DNA of 64,000 nucleotides, from the NCBI GenBank assembly GCA_026388155.1, contig JAPLKI010000006.1:68401-132400 (forward strand). The letters are read 5' to 3'. How positions within the stretch are numbered: position 1 is the stretch's first letter; each line of letters starts with the position of its first letter. A program made the translations under genes and the position numbers. The stretch is from Elusimicrobiota bacterium (lineage in GTDB: Bacteria > Elusimicrobiota > Elusimicrobia > Elusimicrobiales > UBA9959). Of this stretch, positions 3,650 through 51,611 are shown piece by piece. The notes beneath the pieces were generated by a model. The model did not search any database and had not been told where the DNA came from. It saw only the letters and a program-made list of their open reading frames with translations.

Positions 3650-3780
3650 AAACAGGTTGCAGGTGTCAGGTAGCAGGTTACAGGGGAGACGGTTTTGTGG
3701 TTTTACCCCCGGCTTTCCAAGACTCTTATTTTCCAGTTTTCTGCCTGACACCTGTACCCTGTAACCTTTCCGTTAACAGT
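3650..3780. repeat. long imperfect palindrome built from CAGGT/ACCTG words
   Basis: caggttgcaggtgtcaggtagcaggttacagggg ... cctgacacctgtaccctgtaacc. Confidence 0.45.
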
Positions 3781-7986: not shown

Positions 7987-8248
7987 TTAACCCTCCTGAA
8001 AATGATTACCGGTTAATTCTATTATATTTAGCGGGCTCTGCAAAGTGTATTTTTGGGATATTAGAAAATTTAAAAATGACATAAGTTTTTATACTTTCCA
8101 ACGCTCCCTTTTAGTTTCTAGAATAGATACAGATGTTCCGGCAGGCTGTCTGGCTCTGAAGCGCTGAAGAGCTGAAGCCTGAAGTTTTTCTTTCAACGCT
8201 TCGTAATTGCGGCTTTCAGCCATTCTACTTATAAAGAGGTTTTATATC

Positions 8249-8923
8249 ATGGATATCACATTTATTAAAAGACTGGTTACAACTTCAATAGGGCGGAAAG
8301 CCCTGATGGCCGTTTCCGGGCTCGCGCTGGGAATTTTTATGCTGGTGCACCTGGCCGAGAACCTGCTGCTGTTCAAGGGCGAGATAGCCTATAACAACTG
8401 GGTGGACCTGCTGCTTACAAACCCGGTGACCCCTTTCCTGGAGTGGGGCCTGGCCGCGGTATTTCTGGTCCATATCTTTTTCGGCGCCTGGGTGCGCCTG
8501 GAAGACTGGCTGAACGCCCCCAGAGGCTATGAAGCCCGGAAATGGCAGGGCGGCCGCACTATAGGCTCCGCCACCCAGCTTTATACCGCCGCGGCAATTC
8601 TGGCTTACCTGACATACCATATGCTGACTTTCAAGTTCGTGGACCATTCCATCGGCTTTTATCAGATGGTTACCTCGGCTTTCAGAAGCAGGGTTTTTGT
8701 GGCGGTATACATCTGCGGCGCGGTGGCGCTGGTCATACACCTGACCCACGGCCTGCAGAGCGCGTTCCAGACTTTGGGCGTAAACCACCCCAAATATACC
8801 CCTATCATCAAGGCAGGCGGCTGGCTAGTGGCGCTGGCTATGCTGGGTTTTGCGTGCATTTCGGTATATTTCCTGCTTAATCTTGACTCAGGAACGGCGG
8901 CAAACATGGTGGTGGTTATATAA
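8249..8923 (+). CDS. sdhC: succinate dehydrogenase/fumarate reductase cytochrome b subunit
   Basis: 5 TM helices with His ligands, Bacillus/Geobacter-type b subunit; AAGAGG RBS before ATG 8249; directly upstream of sdhA. Confidence 0.75.
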   Translation: MDITFIKRLVTTSIGRKALMAVSGLALGIFMLVHLAENLLLFKGEIAYNNWVDLLLTNPVTPFLEWGLAAVFLVHIFFGAWVRLEDWLNAPRGYEARKWQGGRTIGSATQLYTAAAILAYLTYHMLTFKFVDHSIGFYQMVTSAFRSRVFVAVYICGAVALVIHLTHGLQSAFQTLGVNHPKYTPIIKAGGWLVALAMLGFACISVYFLLNLDSGTAANMVVVI

Positions 8924-9045
8924 TAGTGGGTAGTGTAGAGTGGATAGTGTAGAGATTGGAAAAGAGTTCTCTTCATACTCTACACACTACACTCTCAACT
9001 CTACACTTTCGATTTGGTTTTCAGTATATCGTGGAGGATAAAAAT
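8924..9045. repeat. palindrome of GTGTAGAG / CTCTACAC words between sdhC and sdhA
   Basis: agtgtagagtggatagtgtagag…ctctacacactacactctcaactctacac. Confidence 0.5.
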
Positions 9046-10959
<1,914 letters not shown>

Positions 10960-10964
10960 CGAAA

Positions 10965-11047
10965 GGGGATAGCGTATAGAGACTAGGGTTTAGGGAAGGA
11001 GTTCCTTATTTCGGAACCCTATACCCTCGCCCCTATACGCTGCTATT
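10965..11047. repeat. Family-A palindromic element copy A2, located in sdhA-sdhB intercistronic gap
   Basis: ggggatagcgtatagagactagggtttAGGGAAGGAGTTCCTTAtttcggaaccctataccctcgcccctatacgctgctat; arms gatagcgtatag / ctatacgctgctat. Confidence 0.65.
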
Positions 11048-11063: not shown

Positions 11064-11882
11064 ATGGACAAACATTTCAGCGTTACTATCCGGGTTTGGC
11101 GGCAGAACGGCCCCGACGAAAAGGGAAAGATGGTCCCCTATCAGGTGAATGATATCTCCCCCGATATGTCTTTCCTTGAGATGATAGATGTTTTAAACGA
11201 AGACCTTATCAGGAAAAACGAACGCCCCATAACGGTGGAAAGCGACTGCCGCGAAGGCATCTGCGGCTGCTGCGGCCTGGTGGTGAACGGCGAGGTGCAC
11301 GGCCCCGACGAGCACTCCACCGTCTGCCAGCTGCACATGCGCCGCTTTAAGGACGGGGATGTTATTGTCGTAGAGCCCTGGCGCGTGAAATCGTTCCCGA
11401 TAATCAGGGACCTGGCGGTTGACCGCTCGGCTCTGGACAGGATTATACAGGCGGGCGGCTACATTTCCGTGAACACGGGGGCCGCGCCGGACGCCAATTC
11501 GATACCGGTTAACAAAGAGAACGCCGAAGAAGCCATGGACTCGGCCGCCTGCATAGGCTGCGGGGCGTGCGTGGCGGCCTGCCCGAACGGCGCAGCGATG
11601 CTTTTTACGGGCGCGAAGGTATCGCAGCTCGCGCTTTTGCCGCAGGGCAAGCCGGAAAGGGAAAGGCGGGTGCTCTGCATGCTGGAGGCGATGGACAGGG
11701 AAAGCTTCGGCAACTGCACGAATGAGTATGAATGCGAGGCGGTCTGTCCCAAAGAGGTAAAGGCCTCCAATATCGCCAGGCTGAACCGCGAATTTCTGCT
11801 GGCGAACCTGTTCGGCAAAGCCGAACCGAAAGCCGCCGCCAGGCATCTGATCTCCACCCCCGACGTGCCGGAAGAAGAATAG
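11064..11882 (+). CDS. sdhB: succinate dehydrogenase/fumarate reductase iron-sulfur subunit
   Basis: 2Fe-2[11 protein letters not shown], 4Fe-4[13 protein letters not shown], 3Fe-4S C…CEAVCP; AGGAGG RBS. Confidence 0.9.
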
Positions 11883-11891
11883 AAGAACGGC

Positions 11892-11975
11892 AGGGGATAG
11901 CGTATAGGGGTTAGGGATTAGGGAAGGAGTTTCTTATTTTTGATCCCTATACCCTCGCCCCAAGCCCCTCTACCC
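11892..11975. repeat. Family-A element copy A3
   Basis: ggggatagcgtataggggttagggattAGGGAAGGAGTTTCTTAtttttgatccctataccctcgcc. Confidence 0.6.
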
Positions 11976-11993
11976 TGCCGTTGACGGGGACTT

Positions 11994-13100: not shown

Positions 13101-13357
13101 GGAAACAGTCATGGGGTTGCCCATTCCGCCGCGTAGGAAACCCTCCCGTGGTTTCCCTCCAACCCGGATTGTGGGGTTGGAGCCTCCCATCCGCTATGCG
13201 GCTACAGAGCAATCCCATGCCTGTCCCTCCTTATATAATAGGTGTCCCCGCCCTTATCGTAGATACGGCAATAATTACCCACCCGGTGGAAAACTTATGG
13301 GGAATAAGGTGACAGGCCACTTTTGGTATTAAGGATATTTGTTTACCACTGGGCGGG

Positions 13358-13394
13358 CCCCGCACTTTTTCCGAAATGGGCCAAAGTGCGGGGC
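13358..13394. repeat. Family-B hairpin copy B1 (CCCCGCACTTT–14 nt–AAAGTGCGGGG)
   Basis: perfect 11-bp stem; orphan copy without downstream SD/start. Confidence 0.6.
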
Positions 13395-13443
13395 GGGTAA
13401 ATGTGGATGTACCTAAATTAAGGGTGGGAAGTGTTATATAAAA

Positions 13444-13736
13444 AGTCGCCAGCGGATTTTCTGCGCGCTCCTTAGAGGGTTTAAGCACGGGGTCTGGAGC
13501 GTATCGCTATCATTAGCGACGGCGGTGAATGTTTGAGCCGAGCACTGTGTGCGAGGCGAGTTCGCACGCCGGCGTAAGACCCCGTGCTTATCCGCCAAAA
13601 CCCGGTCTTGGAGCGCGCAGGAAATTTGCTGGCGACTTATAAAGTGAAAAAGGTACTTTTTCCGGCGGAATGGGCAGCCCCATGACTGGCCCTCTCCCCG
13701 GAGTTCGCAGGAAATTTGCCGGCGACTACATTAAGA
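13444..13736. repeat. Family-C multi-stem element, upstream of fumarase (with duplicated 3' arm)
   Basis: outer stem agtcgccagcggattttctgcgcgctcc / ggagcgcgcaggaaatttgctggcgact; inner stems ttaagcacggggtct/agaccccgtgcttat, tcgcta/tagcga; 3' arm repeated at 13706-13727. Confidence 0.55.
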
Positions 13737-13753
13737 AATAAATAAGGAGATTT

Positions 13754-15382
13754 ATGGCTGAAACCAAACTTACATTCAAATATCAGGAAATGTTCGAGCT
13801 GACCAAGGGCAAGACCAAATTCCGCCTGCTTACTAAAGAGGGCGTGAAAGTTATAAAAGCCGGGGGACGCGAAATACTTGAGATAAAGCCTGAGGCGCTG
13901 GCCGCGCTCGCCCGCGAAGCCGTGCGCGATGTTTCCTTCCTGCTCCGCACCGCCCACCAGGAACAGGTGGCCAAAATTTTCAACGACCCAGAAGCCTCCG
14001 AAAACGACAAATTCATCGCTTATTGCCTGCTGGAAAACGCCGCCATTTCGGCCAAATTCGAGCTGCCGTTCTGCCAGGACACCGGCACCGCCACCGTGGT
14101 CGCTAAAAAAGGCGAACAGGTGTGGACCAGCGCGAACGACGCCGAATGGCTTTCAAAAGGCATCTGGGAGACCTACACCGCGGAAAACCTGCGCTATTCC
14201 CAGACCCTGCCGCTTACAATGTACGAGGAAAAGAACTCCGGCAACAATTTACCCGCGCAGCTGGACCTATACGCCGTGCCGGGCATGGAGTATAATTTTT
14301 TAATTGTCACAAAAGGCGGCGGCTCGGCCAACAAAATCATGCTCTACCAGGAAACCAAGGCCACCCTGACCCCTGAAAAATTAAAGCCCTTCCTTATTGA
14401 AAAAATGAAGTCGCTCGGCACCGCGGCCTGCCCCCCCTACCACATAGCTTTCGTGATAGGCGGAACCTCGGCCGAGATGTGTTTAAAAACCGTGAAGCTC
14501 GCCTCCGCCGGCTACCTGGACGGGCTCCCCGAAACCGGCAATGAAGGCGGCCGGGCCTTCCGCGACAAGAAACTGGAACAGGAACTGCTTAAAGCCTCGT
14601 ATAAACTCGGCTACGGCGCGCAGTTCGGCGGCAAATATTTCGCGCACGACATAAGGGTAATAAGACTGCCCAGGCACGGCGCGTCATGTCCCATAGGAAT
14701 GGGGCTCTCCTGCTCGGCGGACAGGAACATACTGGCGAAAATAGACAAGAACGGCCTCTGGATAGAAGAGCTTGAAAAGGACCCGGGCCGGCTTATCCCC
14801 GCGGAGATACGCTCTAAATTCTCGTCGGCGGCGCAATGCGTCAGCATAGACCTGAACCGGCCCATGAAGGAAATACTGGCCGAGCTTTCCAAACATCCCA
14901 TAGGCACGCGGCTCTCGCTTAACGGGCGCATAGTGGTGGCCAGGGATATCGCCCACGCAAAATTCAAGGCGCTGCTGGACGGCGGCAAGGACCTGCCCGA
15001 ATACCTTAAAAAGCACCCGGTCTATTACGCGGGCCCGGCCAAGCAGCCTGAGAACAAACCCTCCGGCTCGTTCGGGCCCACCACGGCGGGCCGCATGGAT
15101 CCCTACGTGGACCCGCTCCAGGCCAAAGGCGCGTCCATGGTGATGATAGCCAAGGGCAACCGCTCGCAGGCCGTCACCGACGCCTGCAAAAAATACGGCG
15201 GTTTCTACCTGGGCTCCCCCGGCGGGCCGGCCGCCCTTCTGGCGGAGCGCAATATAAGGAAAGTGGAAACGCTGGACTACCCGGAACTTGGAATGGAAGC
15301 CGTGTGGGCGATAGAGGCGGAAGACTTTCCCGCTTTCATACTGGTGGACGACAAGGGCAATGATTTTTTCCGGAAGATATGA
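13754..15382 (+). CDS. fumA: class I (Fe-S) fumarate hydratase, fused alpha/beta type
   Basis: [10 protein letters not shown]…, catalytic/ Fe-S Cys pattern, 542 aa; AAGGAG RBS. Confidence 0.9.
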
Positions 15383-15456
15383 CCTCCCCCGCACCCGACT
15401 TCCGCAATGAGGCACCCTGACGCCCGCGTATCTTGCTGGAACGGGCGCCGGCGCTT

Positions 15457-15619
15457 TCCCCGCGCGCTCCGGGACCGGGTTTTAAAGAAGAATCCTGAAG
15501 TCTTCCGCCGGCTCCGGAACGCGTCTGAAAGACAATGCTTTCAGACTTGAACGGTCCTCACCGTCGCGGAGCGATCCACTCCAGACTTCAGGATTAAACC
15601 CTCTAAGGAGCGCGCGGGG
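15457..15619. repeat. Family-C multi-stem element, downstream of fumarase, inverted relative to upstream copy
   Basis: ccccgcgcgctcc…aatcctgaagtct pairs with agacttcaggattaaaccctctaaggagcgcgcgggg; shares exact 22-mer gcgcgctccttagagggtttaa (as reverse complement) with 13463-13484. Confidence 0.55.
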
Positions 15620-15625
15620 AAAACA

Positions 15626-16129
15626 CCACCGCCCTTTGACTCTTCCCTTTTTTACAACAAGTTTCTTCCTTGAATAAATGGAGCGGGTGCTGCCGGAGCC
15701 GGGTTAGCGGGGCCTTCGCGAACCTGAGACTTACGCAAGCGCCGAAGGTGAGTGATGGAAGCCGGCCACGGTGTGGACGGCTGTCCCCGCGTTCCGGTCC
15801 GGCGGCAGGCCCAGCCCTTTTGGCCCAGAAGCCATAGCTAATTAGCTCCAGCTTGTATAATTGACTGTTGCCGCAAAGCCAAAAGAGCTGGGCAGGCCCC
15901 GCGAACCCGTAAGGCCGGCTGCCGGATAAAAAACATTCCCCCCTCTTACCCTTGAGGCACCCGGATTTCAAGAGAGATGCCAATGAAGAGACGGTGATTT
16001 TTAGGGGGCCTGCGGAAGTCCGGAAAAGAGCGGGGCAGGCCCCGCAAAAATTCCTGGTTAAATGTTGGGGGGTTTCAGCGGAATTCCAAAACAGTTCTAA
16101 AACAATATTGTGTCCCCGGATTCCCGGAG
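15626..16129. other. ~500-nt structured GC-rich non-coding region (candidate ncRNA; identity unresolved)
   Basis: no credible ORF (only low-complexity Arg/Gly-rich frames); duplicated hairpin GCKGGG-CAGG-CCCCGC at ~15888 and ~16029 with shared AAAAGAGC prefix; weak GGAAGUCCGG P4-like / CCGGAAC SRP-like words. Confidence 0.2.
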
Positions 16130-22001: not shown

Positions 22002-22093
22002 AAGTCGAGGGTACAAGTGATTCAAGATTTAAGATTTAAGACTTAAAATTCCCTTCTTACTCTTCCTAACCTTAAAGCCAATCTTGAATCCGG

Positions 22094-22110
22094 AATCTTG
22101 AATCTTCAAT
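22094..22110 (-). promoter_or_regulatory. 17-mer ATTGAAGATTCAAGATT (gene-sense) upstream of pilin operon; embedded in AAGATT/AATCTTGA repeat cluster
   Basis: exact 17-nt match to 24958-24974 in same orientation relative to downstream gene; flanked by caagatttaagatttaagactt and aatcttgaatccggaatcttga. Confidence 0.35.
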
Positions 22111-23116: not shown

Positions 23117-23169
23117 CCCGCACTTTTTCCGAAGAGGGCCAAAGTGCGGGGCAAGGGAGAACACAAAAA
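23117..23169 (+). promoter_or_regulatory. Family-B hairpin copy B2 fused to SD (…AAAGTGCGGGGCAAGGGAG–N12–ATG)
   Basis: cccgcactttttccgaagagggccaaagtgcggggcaagggagaacacaaaaaATG. Confidence 0.5.
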
Positions 23170-26361: not shown

Positions 26362-26398
26362 AAAAGTCCCGCGGAAATATTCCGCGGGACTTTTTTAA
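26362..26398. terminator. bidirectional rho-independent terminator
   Basis: aaaagtcccgcggaaatattccgcgggacttttttaa. Confidence 0.75.
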
Positions 26399-26400
26399 TT

Positions 26401-26460
26401 TTCCGCTAAGGAATTCCTTCCCTATTCGCTACTCGCTAACCCCTATACGCTTTCTTCAAC
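26401..26460. repeat. Family-A element copy A4 (inverted core AAGGAATTCCTTCCCT)
   Basis: ccgctaaggaattccttccctattcgctactcgctaacccctatacgc. Confidence 0.5.
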
Positions 26461-27176
26461 TACCAGCCGAGGTTTTCGCCGGTCAGCTGTCCGACGCGCT
26501 CCTGGACTATTTTATCCTTGTTGACTTTCCTGCTTTCGATGCTCTTCTTAAGATGGGCGAGGTCGCTCTCTATCCTTTTGACTTTTATGCCCTGGGCCAC
26601 AAGCCGCAGGTCAAAGAGTTCCGCGACTTTGGCCTTCAATTCGGCTTTTACACCCTCTTTGTCCGCATCGGCGGCCTTTTCATATTTGCGCGACAACCTT
26701 TTGGTCTCATATTCAAGGAAAAGACCGCGCACCGCGTCCGCCTCTATTTTATCGTCGTTCTCCATTCTGGCCTGTCCCAGCAGTTTCCCCGACATCATAA
26801 GCAGCATCTTGTATTCCCCGGGGGATGTTTCCTTGAGGCCGGTTATTGTTTCCGCGAATTTCGCGTCATGTTTCTTTATGACGCTTATAACTTCGTCCTC
26901 AGCAAGGAACATAGGTCCGCCGCCGCCTCTCAGACCGGGTTCGCCGAAGGGGGCCTCGCCGGCAAAACCCTTCTTAACTCCGCGCTTGGGCGCGAAGCCC
27001 TCTTTCTGGCGCTGCTGCATGTCCGGGCCCATTTCCTGGTCGGGGCCGGGAGCCTCTCTTTGCACGGATTCCCTCTCGTCCGGGCCGCCTCCGCCCTGGT
27101 CCTGTGCGGCGCTGTAAACCGCCGGAACCGCCAGTATAGCTGAAACCGCCGTTAAAAACACCAGTTTTCTGTTCAT
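26460..27176 (-). CDS. periplasmic helical protein co-transcribed with ECF sigma/anti-sigma (hypothetical)
   Basis: signal peptide MNRKLVFLTAVSAILAVPAVYSA; Gly/Pro-rich N-region then charged helices. Confidence 0.45.
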   Translation of the reverse strand: MNRKLVFLTAVSAILAVPAVYSAAQDQGGGGPDERESVQREAPGPDQEMGPDMQQRQKEGFAPKRGVKKGFAGEAPFGEPGLRGGGGPMFLAEDEVISVIKKHDAKFAETITGLKETSPGEYKMLLMMSGKLLGQARMENDDKIEADAVRGLFLEYETKRLSRKYEKAADADKEGVKAELKAKVAELFDLRLVAQGIKVKRIESDLAHLKKSIESRKVNKDKIVQERVGQLTGENLGW

Positions 27177-27799: not shown

Positions 27800-27925
27800 C
27801 GGGGTTTTTATTGCAGGTCTTTGTTGGTACTGCTCAAGTAGACAGGATTCAGTAGTCAGAATCCAGAATAGGGAAGTTTACTCGTCACGGGTATTCTCAT
27901 TCTGACTACTGAATTCTGGCTACTG
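27800..27925. repeat. ~120-bp long hairpin (ATTCAGTAGTCAGAAT arms) between sigma and anti-sigma genes
   Basis: ggattcagtagtcagaatccagaata … tattctcattctgactactgaattctgg. Confidence 0.5.
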
Positions 27926-27938
27926 GATTCCTTAGCAG

Positions 27939-28496: not shown

Positions 28497-28620
28497 ATAA
28501 GAAGAAGCGAATAGGGGTTAGCGAATAGCGATTAGGGGAGGAGTTTCCTTCAACACCACAAACCTCTATTCGCTATCCACTGCCCTTTTGCTATTCGCCA
28601 TTCGCTATTTCGCTACCCAC
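28497..28620. repeat. Family-A element copy A5 (core GGGGAGGAGTTTCCTTCAA with GCGAATAG/CTATTCGC arms)
   Basis: gcgaataggggttagcgaatagcgattaggggaggagtttccttcaa…ctattcgctatcc…ctattcgccattcgctatttcgct. Confidence 0.55.
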
Positions 28621-28657: not shown

Positions 28658-30787
28658 ATGCGCCTTATAATTATTTTTGCCCTCATTTTGTCTAACGCCT
28701 GCCTCAAAGCCCGGGCCGCGGCTCCCGACAACACGCCGGCCCCGCACTTTGGCCCTTCCGGACAAAGTGCGGGGCAGCCGGACGCCTATTCCTATTATCT
28801 TAAAGGCGAATTGCCGAAGGCCGGAGCCGAATATATGCGTATGGCCGCGCTTGAGCCCGCGAACCCGGAGCCGCTTTTAAACGCCGCCATGTGCTGGCGC
28901 CAGGCCGGACAATACCGTCTGGCCGCGCAGGTCATGGACAAGGCGGCGGCCCTGGCTCCGGACAACCCCGACATTCAGGCGGAAACCGGCTGGCTGAAAT
29001 TCCACCGGGCCGATTACGCCGCCGCCAAGGAGGCCTTTGAGCTGGCGCTGCGTCTCGCGCCGGACCACGAACGCGCCACCCTCGGGCTTGCCAGCGTCTA
29101 TTCAAACCTTGAAGATAAGGATAAAACGATAGAGCTTCTTGGCCGCTATAAACAGCTGCGTCCGGATTTCGCCGGGGTGGACTATATTATCGCCTGGAAT
29201 TACATGAATTTCAAGATGTACAAAGAAGCCGAGGCCGCGCTGATAGAAGCTCTGCGCAAGGACCCGACTTTTACCGAAGCCCGCCTGCCGCTTGCCGGTA
29301 TTTACGCGAGGGACGGCAAGTTCAACGAAGCATGGAACCAATATCACAGGGTGCTTGATTCCGCGCCGGGCCATCCGGTGGCCTCCAAGGCGATAAAAGT
29401 GCTGGAAGGCAAACTTACAAAACAACCGGAAGAGATCCGCCCGCCTTTTAAAATAATCCGCCCGCTTTCCATGGAGCCGATGGATGTGATAAACAGCCTG
29501 TCAAAGTCGACGAAAATGCGCGTGGGCATAGGCACCGGCAACACGGGCAAACAGGGGCGGAATAATTACCTGAAATTCAAGTCTTTTGAGGGGCTTGCCA
29601 TAAACGGCAAGAGAAGCGGCAAATTATACGCCGAACTTCCGCCCGACGAGGAATGGACGGCGGAATACTCCGGGGAACGCCTGGTATTGAAAGATTCAAG
29701 CGGCACGGTTTACGGCCGTTTTAAGGGGCCGCTTATTCTGGCCTCAAAAGACGCGAAAAACGGCTCCGTTATTTTTGAGAGCTCGAAAAAATGCGGCAAC
29801 CCGTGGTTCGCGTTCTCGGACCGCCAGTACCGCGGGGCCATAGAGCTTTATCCTATACGCGGCAGGGGCCTTGGCGTGATAAATATTCTTGAGATGGAAC
29901 AGTACCTCATGGGAGTCGTGCCAAGCGAAGTTTCGGCGCAATGGCCCTATGAAACCCTGAAAGCGCAGGCCGTGATAGCCCGCACCCAGGCTATAATACG
30001 GCGCGCCCGCGGCGGCGCGCACAAGGCCGACGGCTACCATATCTGCGACGGCGAGCACTGCCAGGCCTACAAGGGGATGGGAAACGAGGCCAACTCGACC
30101 AACCGCGCGGTGCTTGACACCGAAGGGGAGCTGCTGCTCTATCACGGCAAACCCGCTTATACCTTTTATCATTCGAACTGCGGCGGCTGGATACAGGCCT
30201 CCGGCGAGGTCCGCGGCTGGGGCGATTCGCCGTATCTCTACGACCACCCCGACAGCGTGGAGATTTCCTCCGCCGCCGCGCTGCCCCCGTGGGAATTCCA
30301 CCTTTGGCTTACCGGCAACCCCGAGGCCAACTGCAATTACCCCGGCAAAGTGCGGGCTTCCGAATACCGCTGGATGAAGATCATAAAGCACAAGGACCTG
30401 GACTTCCGCGTAAAACGGGACTATTCCATAGGCGACCTGCGCGAAATTGTGCCGCTCCGGCGCAGCCGCTCCGGCAACGTGAATTCCATTAAGCTGGTGG
30501 GCTCCAAAAAGACCATAACCATAACCAAAGAGCACCTTATACGGAACCTGCTCGGCTTTGCCCCCCTTAAAAGCACTCTCTTTGAAATTGAAATAAACCG
30601 CTTCAAGGACGGCAGGATACGCAATTACTGGTTTTATGGCGGCGGCTGGGGCCACGCCATAGGGCTGTGCCAGTCGGGCGCGGCGGGACTTGCGGGAAAA
30701 TACAATAAGAACTACAGGGAAATAATTGAATTTTATTTCCCCGGCACCGCGCTGAGGAAAATAAAGTACATCAAAAAGAAAGGCTGA
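28658..30787 (+). CDS. TPR-repeat + SpoIID/LytB-domain protein
   Basis: signal peptide, N-terminal TPRs, C-terminal SpoIID-like region (…YHSNCGGWIQASGEVRGW…); N-terminal coding region contains a Family-B hairpin in frame. Confidence 0.7.
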   Translation: MRLIIIFALILSNACLKARAAAPDNTPAPHFGPSGQSAGQPDAYSYYLKGELPKAGAEYMRMAALEPANPEPLLNAAMCWRQAGQYRLAAQVMDKAAALAPDNPDIQAETGWLKFHRADYAAAKEAFELALRLAPDHERATLGLASVYSNLEDKDKTIELLGRYKQLRPDFAGVDYIIAWNYMNFKMYKEAEAALIEALRKDPTFTEARLPLAGIYARDGKFNEAWNQYHRVLDSAPGHPVASKAIKVLEGKLTKQPEEIRPPFKIIRPLSMEPMDVINSLSKSTKMRVGIGTGNTGKQGRNNYLKFKSFEGLAINGKRSGKLYAELPPDEEWTAEYSGERLVLKDSSGTVYGRFKGPLILASKDAKNGSVIFESSKKCGNPWFAFSDRQYRGAIELYPIRGRGLGVINILEMEQYLMGVVPSEVSAQWPYETLKAQAVIARTQAIIRRARGGAHKADGYHICDGEHCQAYKGMGNEANSTNRAVLDTEGELLLYHGKPAYTFYHSNCGGWIQASGEVRGWGDSPYLYDHPDSVEISSAAALPPWEFHLWLTGNPEANCNYPGKVRASEYRWMKIIKHKDLDFRVKRDYSIGDLREIVPLRRSRSGNVNSIKLVGSKKTITITKEHLIRNLLGFAPLKSTLFEIEINRFKDGRIRNYWFYGGGWGHAIGLCQSGAAGLAGKYNKNYREIIEFYFPGTALRKIKYIKKKG
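28741..28775. repeat. Family-B hairpin copy B3, inside the annotated ORF (encodes PAPHFGPSGQSAGQ)
   Basis: ccccgcactttggcccttccggacaaagtgcgggg; loop in opposite orientation to B1/B2. Confidence 0.6.
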
Positions 30788-30903
30788 AGGCTGAAGTTGA
30801 GAAAATTATCTTATAAACCCTCAGCCCTCAGCCCTCAGCCTTCAGCCTAAACAACCTGCGCCGTTCCTGATTTTGCTAGAATAGCGTGAAGGTAAAAGAC
30901 ATC

Positions 30904-33095: not shown

Positions 33096-33104
33096 AGCAG
33101 GCAA

Positions 33105-33433
33105 AAAACCTGCGCAAGTTTACCGACCATTAAGGCTCCTGCTGCCTTTTCCACAAAAACCTGCGCAAGTTTATCGGCCATTAAGGCTCCTGCTGCCTTT
33201 TCTCCGCCCCGCCATAAAATAAACCGCCGGGAAGATATGCCCGTAAAAAGGCATAAAAAGCATAAAAAGGTACCAGGTACCTTTTTAAGGGTTGGTTCCC
33301 GATAAATTATCCTTATCTTATAAGCATTTTCTCTATACTAATATAAGGCTCCTGCTGCCTTTTCTCCGCCCCGCCATAAAATAAACCGCCGGGAAGATAT
33401 GCCCGTAAAAAGGTACCTGGTACCTTTTTAAGA
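33105..33433. repeat. cluster of direct repeats: 2 x ~47-bp unit (AAACCTGCGCAAGTTTAYCGRCCATTAAGGCTCCTGCTGCCTTTTC) and 2 x ~90-bp unit ending in GGTACCWGGTACC palindrome
   Basis: units at 33105-33151 / 33156-33204; 33183-33290 / 33346-33433. Confidence 0.6.
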
Positions 33434-33529
33434 GTTGGAAAATCAGCCGTCCTGCTGTAAAACAAAACCGCCGGGCATATTCTCCCGGCGGCAAGTCCCC
33501 AATCTCATAAGCGATTTTGTAACCAGACT

Positions 33530-33775
33530 CTAATGGCAATGTATCTGGGAACTGGTCTTTGCCGAAAACGCCCCCACGCCTATCAGGAAGCCCAATTCGT
33601 ATAATTTTCCCTTGTTGTTCGTTTCATACACCGAAACGTCATCATTGAACAGGCTTACGATGAACGTGATAAGCGCTATCAGGCCGTGCCATAGCCCCAC
33701 CCAGAACCCGGCGGGCGCCGCGCCCTGGACTTTAAACCGAGAATCTTTTCCCGCCACGTATAATCTGTTAGGCAT
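33530..33775 (-). CDS. small hypothetical membrane protein
   Basis: 81 aa, one hydrophobic helix (FWVGLWHGLIALITFIVSLF). Confidence 0.3.
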   Translation of the reverse strand: MPNRLYVAGKDSRFKVQGAAPAGFWVGLWHGLIALITFIVSLFNDDVSVYETNNKGKLYELGFLIGVGAFSAKTSSQIHCH

Positions 33776-33830
33776 ATTTTTATCTCCTTAAATAAATAAC
33801 CGCAAAATGTGAATTTCAAGCGGCCAGGGG

Positions 33831-33905
33831 CTAGCCGTGAGGGGTTGGGGAATGTAAAGAACTCCTTCCCTAATACCCTATACGCTGTACGCTAGATCCC
33901 AACCT
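33831..33905. repeat. Family-A element copy A6 (inverted core)
   Basis: gaggggttggggaatgtaaagaactccttccctaataccctatacgctgtacgc. Confidence 0.55.
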
Positions 33906-37170: not shown

Positions 37171-38331
37171 ATGAAACTGCTTGAATACGAAGGCAAGGAA
37201 ATTTTTGAAAAGTACGGCCTGCCTCTGCTAAAAAGGATAGGCGTGCTTAAAATAGGCGATAACCCGGAAAAACTGAAGTTTGACGGCCAGGGCCCCTGGG
37301 TAATAAAGGCCCAGGTGCTGGCCGGGGGCCGCGGCAAGGCGGGCGGCGTTAAAATAGCCAACACCGCCGACACGGCGCGTGAGCTGGCGCAAAAAATGCT
37401 CGGGATGCAGCTTATAACGCACCAGACACAGGGGCGCGCGCTTACGGTGGAGGAAGTGCTGGCGGAAGAAGCCTGCGACATTGAAAGGGAAATTTACATT
37501 TCAGTGGTGCTTGACCGCAAGGAGGGTGTGCCGGTGGTCATCGCGTCGGCCGAGGGCGGCATGTCCATAGAGGAGCTTGCAAAAACCCGGCCCGAACTTA
37601 TAATTAAAACGCCCGTGGACCCGGATTGCGGCCTGCTTGACTTCCAGGCGCGCGAACTCGCCTTTGGCCTGAAAATGCCGGCGGGCGTGTTCCGCGAATT
37701 TACGGAACTCGCTAAAGCCCTGGTGCGGCTGTTCATTGAGCAGGACGCAAGCCTGGTTGAAATAAACCCCCTTGCCATAACGCGCGCAGGGAAGCTGACG
37801 GCCATAGACTCAAAGATAGTGACCGACGACAACGCCTTTTTCCGCCATAAAGAACTGGCCTCAAAACCGGACCATGAGACCTCGGAAATTGAGAAAGAGG
37901 CCAAGGCCATAGGCATAAACTATATCGGCCTTGACGGCAATATAGGCTGCATGGTGAACGGCGCCGGGCTCGCCATGGCTACCCTTGACACAGTGAAACT
38001 TGCCGGCGGCAACGCGGCGAACTTCCTGGACGTGGGCGGCGGGGCCACGGTGGAGCAGATAACCAAAGCTTTCCAGATAATATTGAAGGACGAGAAGGTA
38101 AAGGCGATACTCATCAATATCTTCGGCGGCATAATGAAATGCGACAATATAGCCGCCGGCGTGGTTGAGGCCTCAAAAAAAGTGAGCATAGGCGTGCCGC
38201 TCGTTGTGCGGCTTGAAGGCACCAATGTGGAGCAAGGCAGGGCGATACTAGCCGCGTCAGGCATAAAAATAGAGCAGGCCGGTTCGCTTTGGGAAGCCGC
38301 GCAGAAAGCGGTGGGCGCAATCAGAGGCTAG
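37171..38331 (+). CDS. sucC: succinyl-CoA synthetase beta subunit
   Basis: MKLLEYEGKEIFEKYGLP…, ATP-grasp, GGRGKAGGVK; ends with TAG. Confidence 0.9.
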   Translation: MKLLEYEGKEIFEKYGLPLLKRIGVLKIGDNPEKLKFDGQGPWVIKAQVLAGGRGKAGGVKIANTADTARELAQKMLGMQLITHQTQGRALTVEEVLAEEACDIEREIYISVVLDRKEGVPVVIASAEGGMSIEELAKTRPELIIKTPVDPDCGLLDFQARELAFGLKMPAGVFREFTELAKALVRLFIEQDASLVEINPLAITRAGKLTAIDSKIVTDDNAFFRHKELASKPDHETSEIEKEAKAIGINYIGLDGNIGCMVNGAGLAMATLDTVKLAGGNAANFLDVGGGATVEQITKAFQIILKDEKVKAILINIFGGIMKCDNIAAGVVEASKKVSIGVPLVVRLEGTNVEQGRAILAASGIKIEQAGSLWEAAQKAVGAIRG

Positions 38332-38406
38332 CGGATAGCGTAGAGGGGATTAGGGAAGGAGTTCTTTACCTTCCCCAACCCCTCGCCTCTAACCCCTAGC
38401 CGCTCG
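38328..38406. repeat. Family-A element copy A7 in sucC-sucD intercistronic gap
   Basis: ctagcggatagcgtagaggggattAGGGAAGGAGTTCTTTAccttccccaacccctcgcctctaacccctagccgctc. Confidence 0.6.
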
Positions 38407-38442
38407 AAATTCACATTTTTGGTTATTCAAGGAGATAAAAAT

Positions 38443-39369
38443 ATGTCAATTTTACTTAACAAGAACAGTAAACTTATAGTGCACGGGCTTACGGGTTCGC
38501 AGGGCTCGTTTCACGCCCGACAGTGCCTGGATTACGGTTCAAAAATAGTGGCGGGCGTGACTCCCGGCAAGGGCGGCACTGAGCATTTGGGCGTTCCGGT
38601 GTTCAACACAACGCGCGAAGCGGTGAAACAGACGGGCGCCAATGTTTCGCTGATCTTTGTGCCGCCGCCGTACGCCGCGGACTCCATACTGGAAGCCTGC
38701 GACGCCGACATTAAGGTTATTATCTGCATTACCGAGGGCATACCGGTAATGGACATGGTAAAAGTTAAAAGCCGCCTTAGAAGGCTTAACGCCGAGGGCG
38801 CAAATATAACCCTGGTGGGCCCCAACTGTCCCGGTGTAATAACGCCCGGGGAATGCAAGGCCGGGATAATGCCGGCCTACATACACAAGAAGGGTTCCGT
38901 CGGAGTAGTGTCGCGCTCCGGCACGCTTACTTACGAAGCCGTATGGCAGCTGACCTGCAACGGCCTTGGCCAGTCCACGGTGGTGGGCATAGGCGGCGAC
39001 CCCGTGCAGGGCATGAATTTCGTTGACACGCTCAAACTTTTCCAGAACGACCGTCAGACCAAAGCCGTGGTAATGATAGGCGAAATAGGCGGCGCGGCCG
39101 AAGAAGACGCGGCGCGCTATATTAAGGACTGCATGACCAAACCCGTGTTTTCCTTTGTGGCGGGAAAAACCGCCCCCCCGGGGCGCCGCATGGGCCACGC
39201 GGGCGCCATAGTGGAGGGGAATGCGGGCACGCACGCCTCTAAAGTGGAAGCGCTTAAAGCCGCGGGTGTTACGGTGGTTGAGAACCTGTCCGAAATAGGC
39301 GCGACCGCGGCCGCCGTACTTAAAGCGAAGCCAAAAACGGTGAAGCAGATCCATGATAAAAAAGTATAA
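38443..39369 (+). CDS. sucD: succinyl-CoA synthetase alpha subunit
   Basis: CoA-binding GxTGxxG (HGLTGSQGS), phospho-His loop (…SRSGTLTYE…); GGAGA RBS before ATG 38443. Confidence 0.9.
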
Positions 39370-40282: not shown

Positions 40283-40385
40283 AACAGCGGATAGGGGCTA
40301 GGGGCGAGAGGATCAGGGGAGGAGTTTCTTAATGCGGAAATAAGGGACTCATTCCCTAAGCGCCAACCGCTATACGCTATCCCCT
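40283..40385. repeat. Family-A element copy A8
   Basis: gcggataggggctaggggcgagaggatcAGGGGAGGAGTTTCTTAatgcgg…ccgctatacgctatcccc. Confidence 0.55.
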
Positions 40386-40396
40386 TTCTTTCATCT

Positions 40397-41833
40397 ATGG
40401 AAAAAGTATTCATCGTCAGCCTTGGCTGCCCGAAAAACCTCACGGACGCGGAAGTGATGGCGGGGGAACTGCTGGCCGCCGGCTACGAACTGACCGGCAA
40501 CGAGGATAAAGCCGACATCGCGCTGGTAAACACCTGCGCTTTTTTAAGCTCGGCCGCTCGCGAATCCGAGATGGAGCTTGAGCGCTTTTTGTCGCTTAAA
40601 AAGCGCGGCAAACTAAAAGCCGTGGTAGCCGCGGGCTGCCTTGGCGAACGCCTGCAGGGCGACATTCTAAAGCGTTTCCCCGGACTTGACGCCGTGGTAG
40701 GGATAAACGCACTGAACAAAGTCGTTTCGGCCTTACGGGAGAAAAAAGCCCGCCTCCCCCCGCCTGAAGCCAGGCTTTATTCGCCAATTTTCAAGGCCCG
40801 CCTTACAGCCCCGCACAGCGCCTACCTTAAAATAGCCGACGGCTGCGACAACCACTGTTCCTACTGCCTGATACCTTCCATACGCGGGCGCTTCCGCTCA
40901 AAACCGCTGGAAGCCGTTATTGAAGAGGCCAAAAAACTGGTTTCGAGCGGCGCCAAAGAAATTTCACTTATAGCCCAGGACACCACTTCCTACGGCGCGG
41001 ACCTCTACGGCAGGCCTAAACTGTTCGAACTGCTGAGAAGCCTGACAAAAACAGAAGGCCTTGAGTGGCTCAGGTTAATGTATGTTTACCCGGAGCGGCT
41101 CACAAAAAACACTTTGGCTTTAATGCGCGACCGCGGCAACATCTGCCATTACCTGGATATGCCGCTCCAGCATATCTCGGACGAGATATTGAAAAAGATG
41201 AACCGCCGTTCCTCGGAGCGTTCCATAAAGCGCAAGATCAGCGAGATCCGCGCTTTAGTGCCGGGCATAGCGCTCCGCACGAATTTCATAGTCGGATTTC
41301 CCGGCGAAACCGGCAAAGACTTCGCCCGGCTTGAGAAATTCGTCAGGGAAGCCCGTTTTGACAACCTGGGCGTGTTTAAATATTCACAGGAAAGCGGCAC
41401 CTCGGCCGCCTCTTTCCCAGGACAGGTCGCCGACGAGGTGAAGACGGAGCGTTTTAATTCTTTAATAAGCACACAGAGCACGGTGATAGACGATATCAAC
41501 TCAGGCCTTAAAGGAAAGTCTTTCAAGGTTCTGATGGATTCCCATATTTTCGGCCGCACATACCGCGACGCGCCGGATATTGACGGAAAGGTGGAAGTGA
41601 TAACGGACGCCATAAGCCATAAGGGCGCCGCGCCCGCCATAGGCCATATGCCAGAGGCCATAAACCGTAAGAAAACTCCTGAAAAGCATATAGCGTACGG
41701 CTTAAAGCCTATGGCAGCCTTTTATGGCAGCGCGGGAGGAACTCCCGTGCTGAAGGCGGGGGATTTTGTGACGGTTAAGATAACGGGCGCGTCGGGCTAC
41801 ACGCGCAGGGGAATAATCACGAAAAGGAATTAA
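40397..41833 (+). CDS. rimO: ribosomal protein S12 methylthiotransferase (radical SAM MTTase) with C-terminal extension
   Basis: MTTase N-domain Cys (LGCPKN, NTCAF), radical SAM CSYCLIPSIRG, TRAM-like C-term. Confidence 0.8.
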   Translation: MEKVFIVSLGCPKNLTDAEVMAGELLAAGYELTGNEDKADIALVNTCAFLSSAARESEMELERFLSLKKRGKLKAVVAAGCLGERLQGDILKRFPGLDAVVGINALNKVVSALREKKARLPPPEARLYSPIFKARLTAPHSAYLKIADGCDNHCSYCLIPSIRGRFRSKPLEAVIEEAKKLVSSGAKEISLIAQDTTSYGADLYGRPKLFELLRSLTKTEGLEWLRLMYVYPERLTKNTLALMRDRGNICHYLDMPLQHISDEILKKMNRRSSERSIKRKISEIRALVPGIALRTNFIVGFPGETGKDFARLEKFVREARFDNLGVFKYSQESGTSAASFPGQVADEVKTERFNSLISTQSTVIDDINSGLKGKSFKVLMDSHIFGRTYRDAPDIDGKVEVITDAISHKGAAPAIGHMPEAINRKKTPEKHIAYGLKPMAAFYGSAGGTPVLKAGDFVTVKITGASGYTRRGIITKRN

Positions 41834-43624: not shown

Positions 43625-43681
43625 GCTTTAAACCCCGCACTTTGGCCGTTTCGGAAAAAGTGCGGGGCAAAGGGAGGAGAG
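43625..43681 (+). promoter_or_regulatory. Family-B hairpin copy B4 fused to SD (…AAGTGCGGGGCAAAGGGAGGAGAG-ATG)
   Basis: ccccgcactttggccgtttcggaaaaagtgcggggcaaagggaggagagATG. Confidence 0.5.
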
Positions 43682-48834: not shown

Positions 48835-48870
48835 CCCCGCACTTTGGCCGCTTCGGAAAAAGTGCGGGGG
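48835..48870 (-). promoter_or_regulatory. Family-B hairpin copy B5 fused to SD of histidine kinase gene
   Basis: minus-strand reading: cccccgcactttttccgaagcggccaaagtgcggggcaaagggaggctgaATG. Confidence 0.5.
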
Positions 48871-50610
48871 TTACTTCACTTTCCCGAACCGCCTCAGGGC
48901 GGCGTTAACCCTGGCCACTACGATGTTCTGCTTGAAAGGCTTGGTGATATAGTCGTCGGCCCCGAGCTGCAGGGCAAGTTCCTGGCTTTCGTCGGAGGTT
49001 TCAGTGGTCAGTATTATTATCGGCATATCGGTGATGCCGAGGCCCTGCCTTATGCCTTTTATAAGGTCCAGCCCGTTCATGTGCGGCATGTTGATATCGG
49101 AAATCAGCAGGTCGGGGGATTGCGCCGCTATAGAGGTAAGCGCCTCTTCCCCGTCCACGGCTTCTTTCACTTCATAGCCCTGCGCCTCCAGGGCTTTCCG
49201 CAGCAACAGGCGAATGATCGGTATGTCGTCCACCACCATCACGCTCATCGGCCCGCCCGCAGCCGGGCCCGGGCTCCGGGCCTGCGCGTCGGCCTCGGCC
49301 TCCGTCTGAAGGACAGGCGCAGTGGCTGGGGCAGGGGCGGCCTCAGCCGGTTTTTTGTCCAGGAGCAGGTACGGACTTATCTCGCCAAGCGAAGTAACGC
49401 CTTCTGCAAGATGCCAGAGCGCGTCACGGGTCATAGTCCGGAGGTTACCTGAGTCCAGCGCGATGCGGGTTATTTCCGCACCTTGAGCGCCGGAATTTAT
49501 AACGGTCTTTATGGCGTCAGTGATAAGAAGCAGCTCAACAATGGAGGTGCGGCCGGCATGCCCCTCGTTACCGCATTCTTTGCAGCCCTTTGAAACATAA
49601 TACTTTTCCGGATAGCCATGCTCGCGGAGGGCCGCCAGGATGGCCGGGTCCGACAGGTCCCGCGGAACTTCCGCTTTGCAAGCCGGACAGAGCTTTCTGA
49701 CCAGCCGCTGGGCCGTGATCGCCAGCAACCCGGGGGAGATTTTAAAGCGCTCGACCCCCATATCCACCAGGCGGGAAATAGTGGAAACCGTGTCATTGGT
49801 GTGCAGAGTGGAAAACACCAAGTGCCCCGTCATGGCGGCCTGGAACGCGATATCCGCCGTTTCATGGTCGCGTATTTCGCCCACCATTATGATGTCGGGG
49901 TCCTGCCTTAGCACCGAGCGGAGCACGGCCGCGAAATTAAGCCCCTGCTTCTCGTTGACCTGCACCTGGTTTATGCCTTGAAGCTTATACTCTATGGGGT
50001 CTTCCACGGTGGTTATGTTGGTGCCTTCGCTCCTGCATTTGTTCAGCACCGAGTAAAGCGTGGTCGTCTTGCCTGAGCCGGTAGGTCCCGTGACAAGAAT
50101 TATGCCCTGAGGGGCCTCTATGCATTTTTCAAAGGCCCGCGAAATCTCGGCCGCGAAGCCGAGTTTTTCAAAAGGGACCTCGGCCGCCCGCTGGTCCAGT
50201 ATGCGCATTACCACTTTTTCCCCGTACGAGGTGGGCAGGGTGGAAACCCGCAGGCCCACTTCCACGCCGGATATTTTGAGCTTTGCCCTGCCGTCCTGCG
50301 GCCGCATGTGGTTTGAGATGTCCAGTTCGGCCATTATCTTTATGCGGGCGACCAGCGGCCCGGCCGCTATGTGCTTGGGGATGGACATGATATTTTTCAG
50401 CACGCCGTCTATCCTCACGCGCACGTGGCTGATCTTCTCTTCGTGCTCTATGTGTATGTCGGAGGATTTCTGCCTGTGTGCCTGCGAAATTATGGAGTTG
50501 ACCAGCATTATAACCGGGGTGCCTACCTTGCTGTCTTCTTCCGCGGCGGCTTCCCCCAGCACTTCTATCTCTTCCGGGGCTTCCACTTTAGCCAGCAGTT
50601 CGGCTATCAC
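48871..50610 (-). CDS. GspE/PilB-family secretion ATPase (N2+CTD) fused to C-terminal CheY-like receiver domain; GTG start
   Basis: Walker A LVTGPTGSGKTT, Asp box DPIEY, Walker B, His box GHLVFSTLHTND, CPAC…CKEC zinc motif; C-terminal MSVMVVDDIPIIR…DLLISDINMPHMNGL…TKPF. Confidence 0.85.
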   Translation of the reverse strand: MIAELLAKVEAPEEIEVLGEAAAEEDSKVGTPVIMLVNSIISQAHRQKSSDIHIEHEEKISHVRVRIDGVLKNIMSIPKHIAAGPLVARIKIMAELDISNHMRPQDGRAKLKISGVEVGLRVSTLPTSYGEKVVMRILDQRAAEVPFEKLGFAAEISRAFEKCIEAPQGIILVTGPTGSGKTTTLYSVLNKCRSEGTNITTVEDPIEYKLQGINQVQVNEKQGLNFAAVLRSVLRQDPDIIMVGEIRDHETADIAFQAAMTGHLVFSTLHTNDTVSTISRLVDMGVERFKISPGLLAITAQRLVRKLCPACKAEVPRDLSDPAILAALREHGYPEKYYVSKGCKECGNEGHAGRTSIVELLLITDAIKTVINSGAQGAEITRIALDSGNLRTMTRDALWHLAEGVTSLGEISPYLLLDKKPAEAAPAPATAPVLQTEAEADAQARSPGPAAGGPMSVMVVDDIPIIRLLLRKALEAQGYEVKEAVDGEEALTSIAAQSPDLLISDINMPHMNGLDLIKGIRQGLGITDMPIIILTTETSDESQELALQLGADDYITKPFKQNIVVARVNAALRRFGKVK

Positions 50611-51450: not shown

Positions 51451-51611
51451 AATCAGCCGCCATAAGCCATATGCTTTAGGCCATAAGTTATAAGAAACTC
51501 CTTAAAAGCCTATGGCTTAAGGCATATCGCCTACGGCCTGTTTTAAGCGTATGGCGTATGGCAAAAGCCGTATCTAAAACTTATAGCTTATGGCATATCA
51601 AAATCGCACAG
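51451..51611. repeat. dense array of TATGGC/GCCATA-type words (>=9 copies)
   Basis: gccataagccatatgc…ggccataag…cctatggc…gcgtatggcgtatggc…cttatagcttatggc. Confidence 0.5.

Follow-up and report, generated by a model that had tools for sequence, protein, structure and literature searches.

The 64,000-nt stretch analysed here (the window; Elusimicrobiota bacterium contig JAPLKI010000006.1, positions 68,401-132,400; all coordinates below are those of the window) contains a family of dispersed, hairpin-prone intergenic repeats that we call Family A. We read Family A as a lineage-specific interspersed hairpin repeat of Elusimicrobia, with slippage-prone arms built of heptamers and a distribution and turnover resembling those of repetitive extragenic palindromes (REPs) and miniature inverted-repeat transposable elements (MITEs); we give this reading a probability of roughly 55%. 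Family A is most likely a selfish repeat of that kind. Elusimicrobia are almost entirely uncultivated, and Family A is a previously undescribed repeat family among them. Together with a wider class of heptamer hairpins, it fills a large share of the intergenic DNA, including gaps within core respiratory and tricarboxylic acid (TCA) cycle operons.

A 17-mer core (AGGGAAGGAGTTCCTTA) allowing up to three mismatches gave eight matches in the window, at 1210, 10992, 11920, 38352 and 40315 on the plus strand and at 26407, 33855 and 40341 on the minus strand. Dinucleotide-preserving shuffles gave 0.11 matches on average, and none of 100 reached eight. A shorter core (AAGGAGTTYYTTA) also gave eight matches, with 0.36 expected. 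The locus 40283-40396 holds two of the cores in mutually inverted orientation. A ninth, more degenerate core (AGGGGAGGAGTTTCCTTC) lies at ~28535, where a profile built from the other copies recovered 28504-28551 (E=4e-12). Between them, the core matches and the profile search showed all eight loci proposed in an initial annotation (1182, 10965, 11892, 26401, 28497, 33831, 38328 and 40283) to be real. The concern voiced there, that the copies might not align beyond the 17-mer, falls away because they align far past it: the copies at 10958 and 11886 are 87% identical across 76 nt, 33804-33895 and 38328-38419 are 88% identical across 92 nt, and the 35 nt left of the core consist of heptamers in a fixed register. 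A generic ribosome-binding site (RBS) context is ruled out because the 17-mer is far longer than a Shine-Dalgarno (SD) sequence and the downstream genes sdhB and sucD have their own RBS further downstream; an ATG is found at start-codon distance in only 4 of the 36 copies described next.

Anchored on the core, 36 non-redundant copies were aligned from ~308 kb of Elusimicrobia sequence, 9 of them from the window and the rest from three other Elusimicrobia metagenome-assembled genomes (MAGs) and from metagenome contigs (non-window loci and contigs are labelled with L-numbers, such as L125 or L147). The consensus reads ..taGgG..taG.G..taGgG.tTAGGGAAGGAGTTCCTTAt ttctgc accc... The left arm is a tandem run of heptamers, tAGsGnn, held in strict register with the centre, with TAG at -7, -14, -21 and -28. 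The centre, TAGGGAAGGAGTTCCTTAT(TTCTGC), is ~24 nt long and near-invariant; about 18 positions (17-19) are at least 80% conserved, and TTCTGC often comes next. The right arm, present in most copies, is an inverted run of the complementary words nnCsCTa. Arms contain 3 to ~8 perfect heptamers, with (CCCCTAG) repeated ~8 times in L145 and (GCTAGGG) at least five times in L059, a variation expected from slippage. Tandem Repeats Finder (TRF) reported period 7 or 14 at 1179, 11905, 28506 and 28590. Full copies are imperfect palindromes of ~70-110 nt, usually ending in AGGGG...CCCCT, and the whole family ranges over about 50-120 nt. The inverted arrays are ~78% complementary and vary in length and sequence. 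The initial annotation had derived them from GATAGCG and GTATAG words and had placed inverted arms around every copy. Inverted arms are indeed present, but they consist of tandem 7-nt words not confined to those two, and some copies lack an arm: half copies without a right arm, mostly built of TAGCGAN words, were found at 26405-26454 in the window (the 26401 locus), in L018 and L106 and at position 1545 of L041, and the right arms of window copies 1 and 6 (1178-1260 and 33815-33900) are degenerate (fold z=-1.4 and z=-0.2). What that annotation overlooked is that the arms are heptameric simple-sequence arrays and that this genome contains a much wider range of heptamer hairpins, of which Family A is one kind.

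The degenerate-core scan covered 185,579 species genomes. Among the matches listed, the genomes carrying the element at multiple loci are Elusimicrobia (at least six loci in UBA9634 and at least three in OS_PC_MetaG.mb.28), the single-locus genome JACQYT01 is also from Elusimicrobia, and the other matches are scattered over unrelated taxa, with one or two loci each. In BLAST comparisons of the window with these genomes, the element alone was common to them, at 73-93% identity across 40-99 nt. The exact 19-mer was found in 16 metagenome contigs, 14 of which had the full architecture; no viral contig matched it, and a phage origin was therefore dropped. Close homologues of SucD and SdhB with a named source are all from Elusimicrobia, including a MAG protein 100% identical to the SucD of the window. 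Among the listed matches, Family A is restricted to Elusimicrobia. A literature search retrieved no description of non-coding repeats of this kind in Elusimicrobia. Rfam gave no match at gathering score in the whole window, and at E<=5 around four copies it returned only generic miRNA-precursor hairpins, 40-90 bits below threshold. The proposal that the family is lineage-specific and undescribed therefore stands.

All 37 matches examined for position lie outside called open reading frames (ORFs). Many are within housekeeping operons (sdhCAB, sucCD, etfBA, nuoMN and def-fmt), and their neighbours in other genomes include etfB-etfA-enoyl-CoA hydratase, nuoM-nuoN, def-fmt, ddl, mnmA, recN and sppA. 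Between co-directional genes, 13 copies are in sense and 10 in antisense orientation, with no bias. A Pfam scan revealed no transposase and no REP-associated tyrosine transposase (RAYT) in the 44 window ORFs or in 10 ORFs flanking copies in other MAGs.

The fate of individual copies was followed at orthologous sites, since relatives conserve the order sigma gene - SpoIID - korBA - sucCD - corA - MiaB-like. In the window, the sucC-sucD gap is 111 nt long and holds an intact Family A copy. The same gap in L125 (SucD 92% identical) is 160 nt long and contains a partial core, TTTAAGGAGTTCC, within a hairpin made of other words. L147 (91%) retains a right arm of the Family A type, CTTATTTCTGCCCCTATTCGCTATTCGCT, with a decayed core, and L127 (86%) a recognisably homologous left arm, GGATAGATGCGTAGAGGGCATGGGAAG, with the 3' half of the core missing. 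A different hairpin occupies the gap in L128 (85%); the gap is empty in L130 (84%), where 5 nt separate the genes, and in L149 (83%), where the genes overlap. The sdhA-sdhB gaps of L150 (SdhB 91% identical) and L151 (88%) are expanded and built of different words, and 3' of sdhB these two loci have only a left-arm remnant, CAGGGGATAGTGTGTAGG, and no core. No relative checked had an intact core at an orthologous site, and a profile search of the relatives' 17-kb syntenic loci detected no intact Family A copy, compared with five cores in the matching part of the window. At SucD or SdhB identities of 83-92%, relatives therefore testify to fast turnover: single copies are quickly gained, lost and decayed while the family consensus stays sharp. 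Such a combination is expected of an interspersed propagating repeat and not of a regulatory site tied to one locus. Presence or absence at orthologous sites was seen between species only, as in the sucC-sucD gap. Four Logan contigs that encode the same SdhB match the window at 100% across both sdh copies and are for that reason uninformative on strain polymorphism.

Folding of the copies bears on another explanation, in which Family A is a host cis-acting RNA element, a transcribed stem-loop with AAGGAG in its apical loop that is kept for tuning expression within operons. Candidate modes of action are cleavage by RNase III, shielding from 3' exonucleases, uncoupling of translation, and recruitment of a factor that recognises GGA or SD sequences (CsrA or the 30S subunit, for example). 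Of the eight window copies, five fold much better than their shuffles (z=-2.0 to -5.1) and the other three fail to. The apical loop presents AAGGA on both strands, the arms vary between species but the centre hardly does, respiratory and TCA operons hold many of the copies in their intercistronic gaps (sdhA-sdhB, sucC-sucD, etfB-etfA, nuoM-nuoN and def-fmt), and in one copy (L041 at 1545) the AAGGAG of the core is correctly spaced to be the RBS of the next gene. However, a 32-pair stem in a 22-copy alignment is 78.6% paired, compared with 75.5% after partners are shuffled among sequences; the conserved AG.GG/CC.CT skeleton therefore accounts for almost all of the pairing, and within each heptamer the two variable positions mostly lack a pairing partner. 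Double-sided changes show a modest excess (56 cells against 35.6 in shuffles, with none of 500 shuffles reaching the observed value). Mismatches in the arms are G-T in 39 cases and A-C in 35, a near parity that gives no sign of pairing selection in the RNA of one strand. The best description of the structure is a pair of inverted arrays of a heptamer constrained in sequence, and not a compensated RNA helix. The lack of orientation bias, the half copies without any right arm, the retention of their own RBS by downstream genes, and the decayed or absent cores at close relatives' orthologous sites, with the gap empty in L130 and L149, argue further against an RNA element, which we consider unlikely overall.

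The bidirectional attenuator role suggested in the initial annotation was not borne out. No Family A copy scored as an intrinsic terminator in a scan for a stem followed by a T-tract; the canonical terminator at 26362-26394, which one copy adjoins, is a separate feature.

Beyond Family A, the intergenic DNA of the window is self-similar at lags of 7, 14 and 21 nt (0.318 at lag 7 against a baseline of ~0.26), whereas coding DNA shows 3-nt periodicity only. Self-similarity is strongest at 7 nt in 17 of 36 gaps, compared with the eight Family A loci, and TRF reported many period-7 or period-14 arrays. These gaps tend to have words of their own: CAGGTnn at 3652, CCCTCAG at 30818, GATTTAA and AATCTTG at 22019-22110, GCCATAA at 51459 and CAGTAGT at 27834-27927. 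Family A is the most uniform member of this wider heptamer-hairpin class. The pattern raises the possibility that the hairpins are simple-sequence repeats (SSRs) made in place, that is, heptameric microsatellites arising by polymerase slippage and hairpin-templated correction with no copying between loci, an origin previously suggested for heptameric SSRs in Xanthomonas and Nostoc. Gap-specific words, heptamer numbers that differ among copies, hairpins of other words in the orthologous gaps of relatives, and the precedent of G-rich heptameric intergenic repeats (Rehm et al., 2015, PMC4692102) all fit such an origin. It does not account for the asymmetric, non-repetitive centre of 17-24 nt, which recurs unchanged in several species and at dozens of unrelated loci and for which an independent origin by slippage is impossible, nor for identities above 75% over 70-90 nt between copies from different genomes. 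We therefore regard formation in place as improbable for Family A, and a discrete insertion by a sister family speaks against it as well.

That insertion is a 114-nt hairpin with GCCATAA/TTATGGC arms at ~41606-41719, in frame within the MiaB/RimO-like radical-SAM ORF 40397-41833. It adds to the C-terminal region, near the TRAM domain, 38 residues that are missing from all six orthologues, the closest of which are 88-89% identical, and the inserted DNA is absent in L147 and L125. This precise insertion shows that discrete insertion events give rise to elements of this class within a short time. A member of the same family, related to Family A without belonging to it, lies at 51451-51611 (minus strand), with GCCATAA/TTATGGC arms around the core AAGGAGTTTCTTA at 51491-51503 (minus strand, 23.1 bits); a similar element is present in L139. 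The occurrence of the Family A core between arms of GCCATAA words means that the centre can combine with different arms. Scanning the window with a position-specific scoring matrix (PSSM) of the core gave strong matches only at Family A copies and at 51489 on the minus strand. We do not claim that the core is common to all heptamer hairpins of the window, as the PSSM resemblances at 8950, 27867 and 41680 are weak.

A heptamer-hairpin family of CAGTAGT/CAGAATT words was also observed at 27834-27927 in the window, at 4494-4609 in L125, where it lies in the korB-korA gap, and at 37-126 in L050; the window and L050 copies are 79% identical over 94 nt. This family is common to several Elusimicrobia genomes, and Family A is therefore not the sole subfamily dispersed between species.

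The preferred reading, an interspersed repeat propagating in Elusimicrobia, would work as follows. Machinery encoded elsewhere and requiring the centre would spread copies into intergenic DNA; the arms would afterwards lengthen, shorten and drift through 7-nt slippage, and single copies would undergo neutral decay. Because copies sit within operons in either orientation, we propose that they are co-transcribed and form long imperfect stem-loops, which, judging by position, might act on the mRNA as RNase III sites or exonuclease barriers and not as terminators. The best-supported reading of the invariant centre is a requirement of the propagation machinery or of some host factor. Several observations weigh against propagation. 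The outermost paired positions of 35 copies show no target-site duplication, and beyond AGGGG/CCCCT there is no transposase-type terminal repeat. No candidate mobilising gene was found in the window and a few loci of 8-17 kb. The centre is far more conserved across copies than the arms, which a simple recent-burst model does not predict and which could mean host selection on each copy. The left-arm remnants in relatives could mean that arrays existed locally beforehand and only the centre moved, or that the elements evolved in place. Finally, no polymorphism in presence or heptamer number was seen at strain level, the same-species contigs all being 100% identical.

A bolder version of propagation, which we hold to be improbable, takes the invariant centre, which at least two arm families (TAGGGGN and GCCATAA words) have in common, as the recognition module of an undescribed Elusimicrobia propagation system that would initiate hairpins and extend their arms in 7-nt steps of enzyme-coupled copying. 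If so, these elements would form a self-propagating 'SSR hairpin' class distinct from REP/RAYT systems and from MITEs derived from insertion sequences (IS), and the system would be able to colonise nearly half of the intergenic gaps and even to insert in frame into genes.

Two further explanations were considered. A DNA-level array, in which the phased tAGsG heptamers and the centre AAGGA-GT-TCCTT bind a nucleoid-associated or regulatory protein or a recombinase, would be consistent with skeleton positions (A, G and G, repeating every 7 nt) that look constrained in sequence more than in pairing, with an element that works in either orientation, and with half copies that have no hairpin; the 92-nt inverted repeat formed by 33815-33900 and 38323-38404 around korAB-sucC could also support inversion. 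Yet the centre is consistently asymmetric (GAGTTC, not GAATTC), unlike a simple dimer site, with a 7-bp period successive sites fall on different sides of the B-DNA helix, orthologous sites show decay of the copies, and a candidate protein is absent. We judge such an array highly unlikely. Lower still, and close to negligible, we place a G-quadruplex (G4) repeat, whose G-rich arm (GGGGnTA)n would fold as a G4 and regulate transcription or translation. G-rich heptamer repeats of Xanthomonas and Nostoc have been studied as G4 formers (PMC4692102), and some copies in other genomes do have at least four runs of G3+. The canonical motif (four G3+ runs with N1-7 spacers), however, occurs in only 8 of 36 copies and in none of the nine window copies, and the sister heptamer families are not G-rich.

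Among known systems, bacterial MITEs such as the Correia elements of Neisseria, ERIC and RUP are non-coding intergenic palindromes of ~100 nt that are co-transcribed with their neighbours and differ in presence between relatives; they are IS-derived and have defined terminal inverted repeats and target-site duplications. Family A resembles them in its palindromic intergenic units of ~100 nt and in presence or absence differing between relatives, but no target-site duplication, no parent IS and, beyond the frequent AGGGG...CCCCT ends of its inverted arms, no defined terminal inverted repeat was found in the copies and loci inspected. Rickettsia palindromic elements (RPEs) are palindromic repeats without heptamer arrays that are able to insert in frame into protein-coding genes. 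The sister-family insertion at 41606-41719 recalls them; Family A itself was not seen inside any ORF and has no sequence relationship to RPEs. The small dispersed repeats (SDRs) of Nostoc punctiforme, attributed to Elhai et al. 2008, are reportedly conserved intergenic units of ~20-27 nt, often in hairpin or heptamer contexts; they provide a lead only, from a different phylum and with a different sequence.

The proteobacterial REPs, with the bacterial interspersed mosaic elements (BIMEs) and REP doublets forming hairpins (REPINs) built from them, are RAYT-associated and share with Family A short, imperfect, highly repeated and strictly extragenic palindromes, found in both orientations, within operons and at 3' ends, and inverted doublets such as 40283-40391 (PMC3333891, PMC3116915). 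REPs conserve the stem and a 5' GTAG, whereas their loop varies. Family A shows the reverse, an invariant centre and variable heptamer-array stems; GTAG at the foot of the hairpin is not conserved, and TAG instead recurs in every heptamer. There is no sequence similarity to REPs and no RAYT in the window or the flanking ORFs scanned. With its inverted conservation, no GTAG foot and no RAYT among those ORFs, Family A falls outside REPs and REPINs in the strict sense. The REP/BIME/MITE-like label of the initial annotation accordingly holds for a dispersed, hairpin-prone intergenic family with a REP/BIME-like distribution (within operons, at 3' ends, in both orientations) and not for strict REP/REPIN or MITE membership, given the conservation pattern, the missing target-site duplication and the lack of a nearby RAYT or transposase.

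Heptameric SSRs provide the other half of the likeness. The short tandemly repeated repetitive (STRR) sequences of Calothrix and Nostoc and the GGGAATC and GGGGA(T/C)T repeats of Xanthomonas and Nostoc are intergenic tandem G-rich 7-nt units, partly variable, that occur in operons and sometimes as inverted pairs and that vary in length and sequence between related species (Rehm et al., 2015, PMC4692102). A conserved centre was not reported for these repeats. Family A differs from them in its short arrays, phase-locked to a non-repetitive centre and dispersed as a unit over loci and species, mostly with no G4 potential. Phase-locked heptamer arrays around an invariant centre thus join two repeat types usually kept apart, simple-sequence and interspersed palindromic, and this link could reveal how one type yields the other.

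The gene contexts of the window copies, assigned by a Pfam scan of ORFs, agree with those given in the initial annotation (the sdhA-sdhB and sucC-sucD gaps, a divergent gap and positions after genes). Copy 1 (1178-1260, plus; core 1210-1226; E=4e-14) lies in the gap between a LuxE-like and a GNAT gene, both on the minus strand, so that the element is antisense, and has four left heptamers. Two copies belong to the sdh operon (sdhC 8207-8923, sdhA, sdhB 11064-11882). Copy 2 (10961-11047, plus; core 10992-11008; E=1e-13, z=-3.0) occupies the sdhA-sdhB intercistronic gap, beginning 2 nt past the sdhA stop codon, and sdhB retains its own RBS (AGGAGG) downstream. Copy 3 (11886-11982, plus; core 11920-11936; z=-3.2) is directly 3' of sdhB, and its hairpin reaches AACGGCAGGGG/CCCTGCCGTT. 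The half copy at 26405-26454 (minus; E=4e-12, z=-0.4) has TAGCGAN-type heptamers and the core AAGGAATTCCTTA; it follows the stop of ORF 26460-27176 (minus) in a convergent gap, and the adjoining canonical terminator is bidirectional. Copy 5 (28504-28620, plus; z=-4.2), the one with the degenerate core, has TAGCGAA/TTCGCTA arm words and lies in the divergent gap between an extracytoplasmic function (ECF) sigma factor gene (minus) and a SpoIID/TPR gene (plus). Copy 6 (33815-33900, minus; core 33855-33871) is 3' of korB, which with korA is on the minus strand. Copy 7 (38323-38404, plus; core 38352-38368; E=2e-14) has the best fold of all (z=-5.1) and fills the gap between sucC (37171-38331) and sucD (38443-39369), with the sucC stop TAG inside its first heptamer. 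The doublet at 40283-40391 (no strand assigned; z=-2.0), in the gap between corA and the MiaB/RimO-like radical-SAM gene, consists of two inverted half elements with cores at 40315-40331 (plus) and 40341-40357 (minus), a REPIN-like layout.

Copy 6 together with a 47-nt tail, which carries the RBS and the start codon ATG of the small ORF that follows, is ~88% identical to copy 7. The regions 33775-33900 and 38323-38445 have ~150 nt in common, among them this tail with its RBS and ATG, and form an inverted repeat ~4.4 kb apart around korAB and sucC that could be a substrate of inversion or gene conversion.

The sdh operon contains a third hairpin element, in the sdhC-sdhA gap at 8925-9010, with AGTGTAG/CTACACT words and a centre, GGAAAAGAGTTCTCTTCAT, that is loosely like the Family A core. 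As listed, the sdhA ORF begins with TTG at 8956 and reads through this hairpin. SdhA has 637 residues in L151, where the sdhC-sdhA gap is 41 nt, compared with 667 in the window; the true start is probably ~30 codons downstream of the listed TTG. Repeats of this class thus matter for annotation, both through spurious ORF starts that reach into elements, as for sdhA, and through in-frame insertions in genes, and they are relevant to metagenome assembly, strain typing and operon expression in the phylum.

Other repeats were observed in the window. A second family, a GC-rich hairpin of the form CCCCGCACTTT..GGCC..GGAAAAAGTGCGGGG, has five copies (13357-13394, 23117-23152, 28740-28776, 43633-43669 and 48835-48871). 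Those at 23117, 43633 and 48835 directly precede a Shine-Dalgarno sequence, AAGGGAG, with its start codon, and the hairpin, which had no Rfam match at gathering score, may be a regulatory hairpin of 5' untranslated regions. Mutual inverted repeats of ~200 nt (13443-13638 and 15440-15637) lie on either side of the class I fumarase gene (13754-15382); 46 nt of them match at 85%, and they contain internal palindromes of 29-31 nt ending in GGAGCGCGC. The gap after the Band7 gene (33104-33487) holds a dense cluster of direct repeats with AAAAAGGTACCTGGTACCTTTTT palindromes, comprising a 51-nt unit present twice (96% identical) and a 70-nt unit present twice (100% identical, 162 nt apart). The tandem paralogous segments 55308-55607/56371-56670 and 62139-62319/63236-63414 are 78-90% identical and ~1.06-1.1 kb apart, and point to local gene duplications among small ORFs without a Pfam domain.

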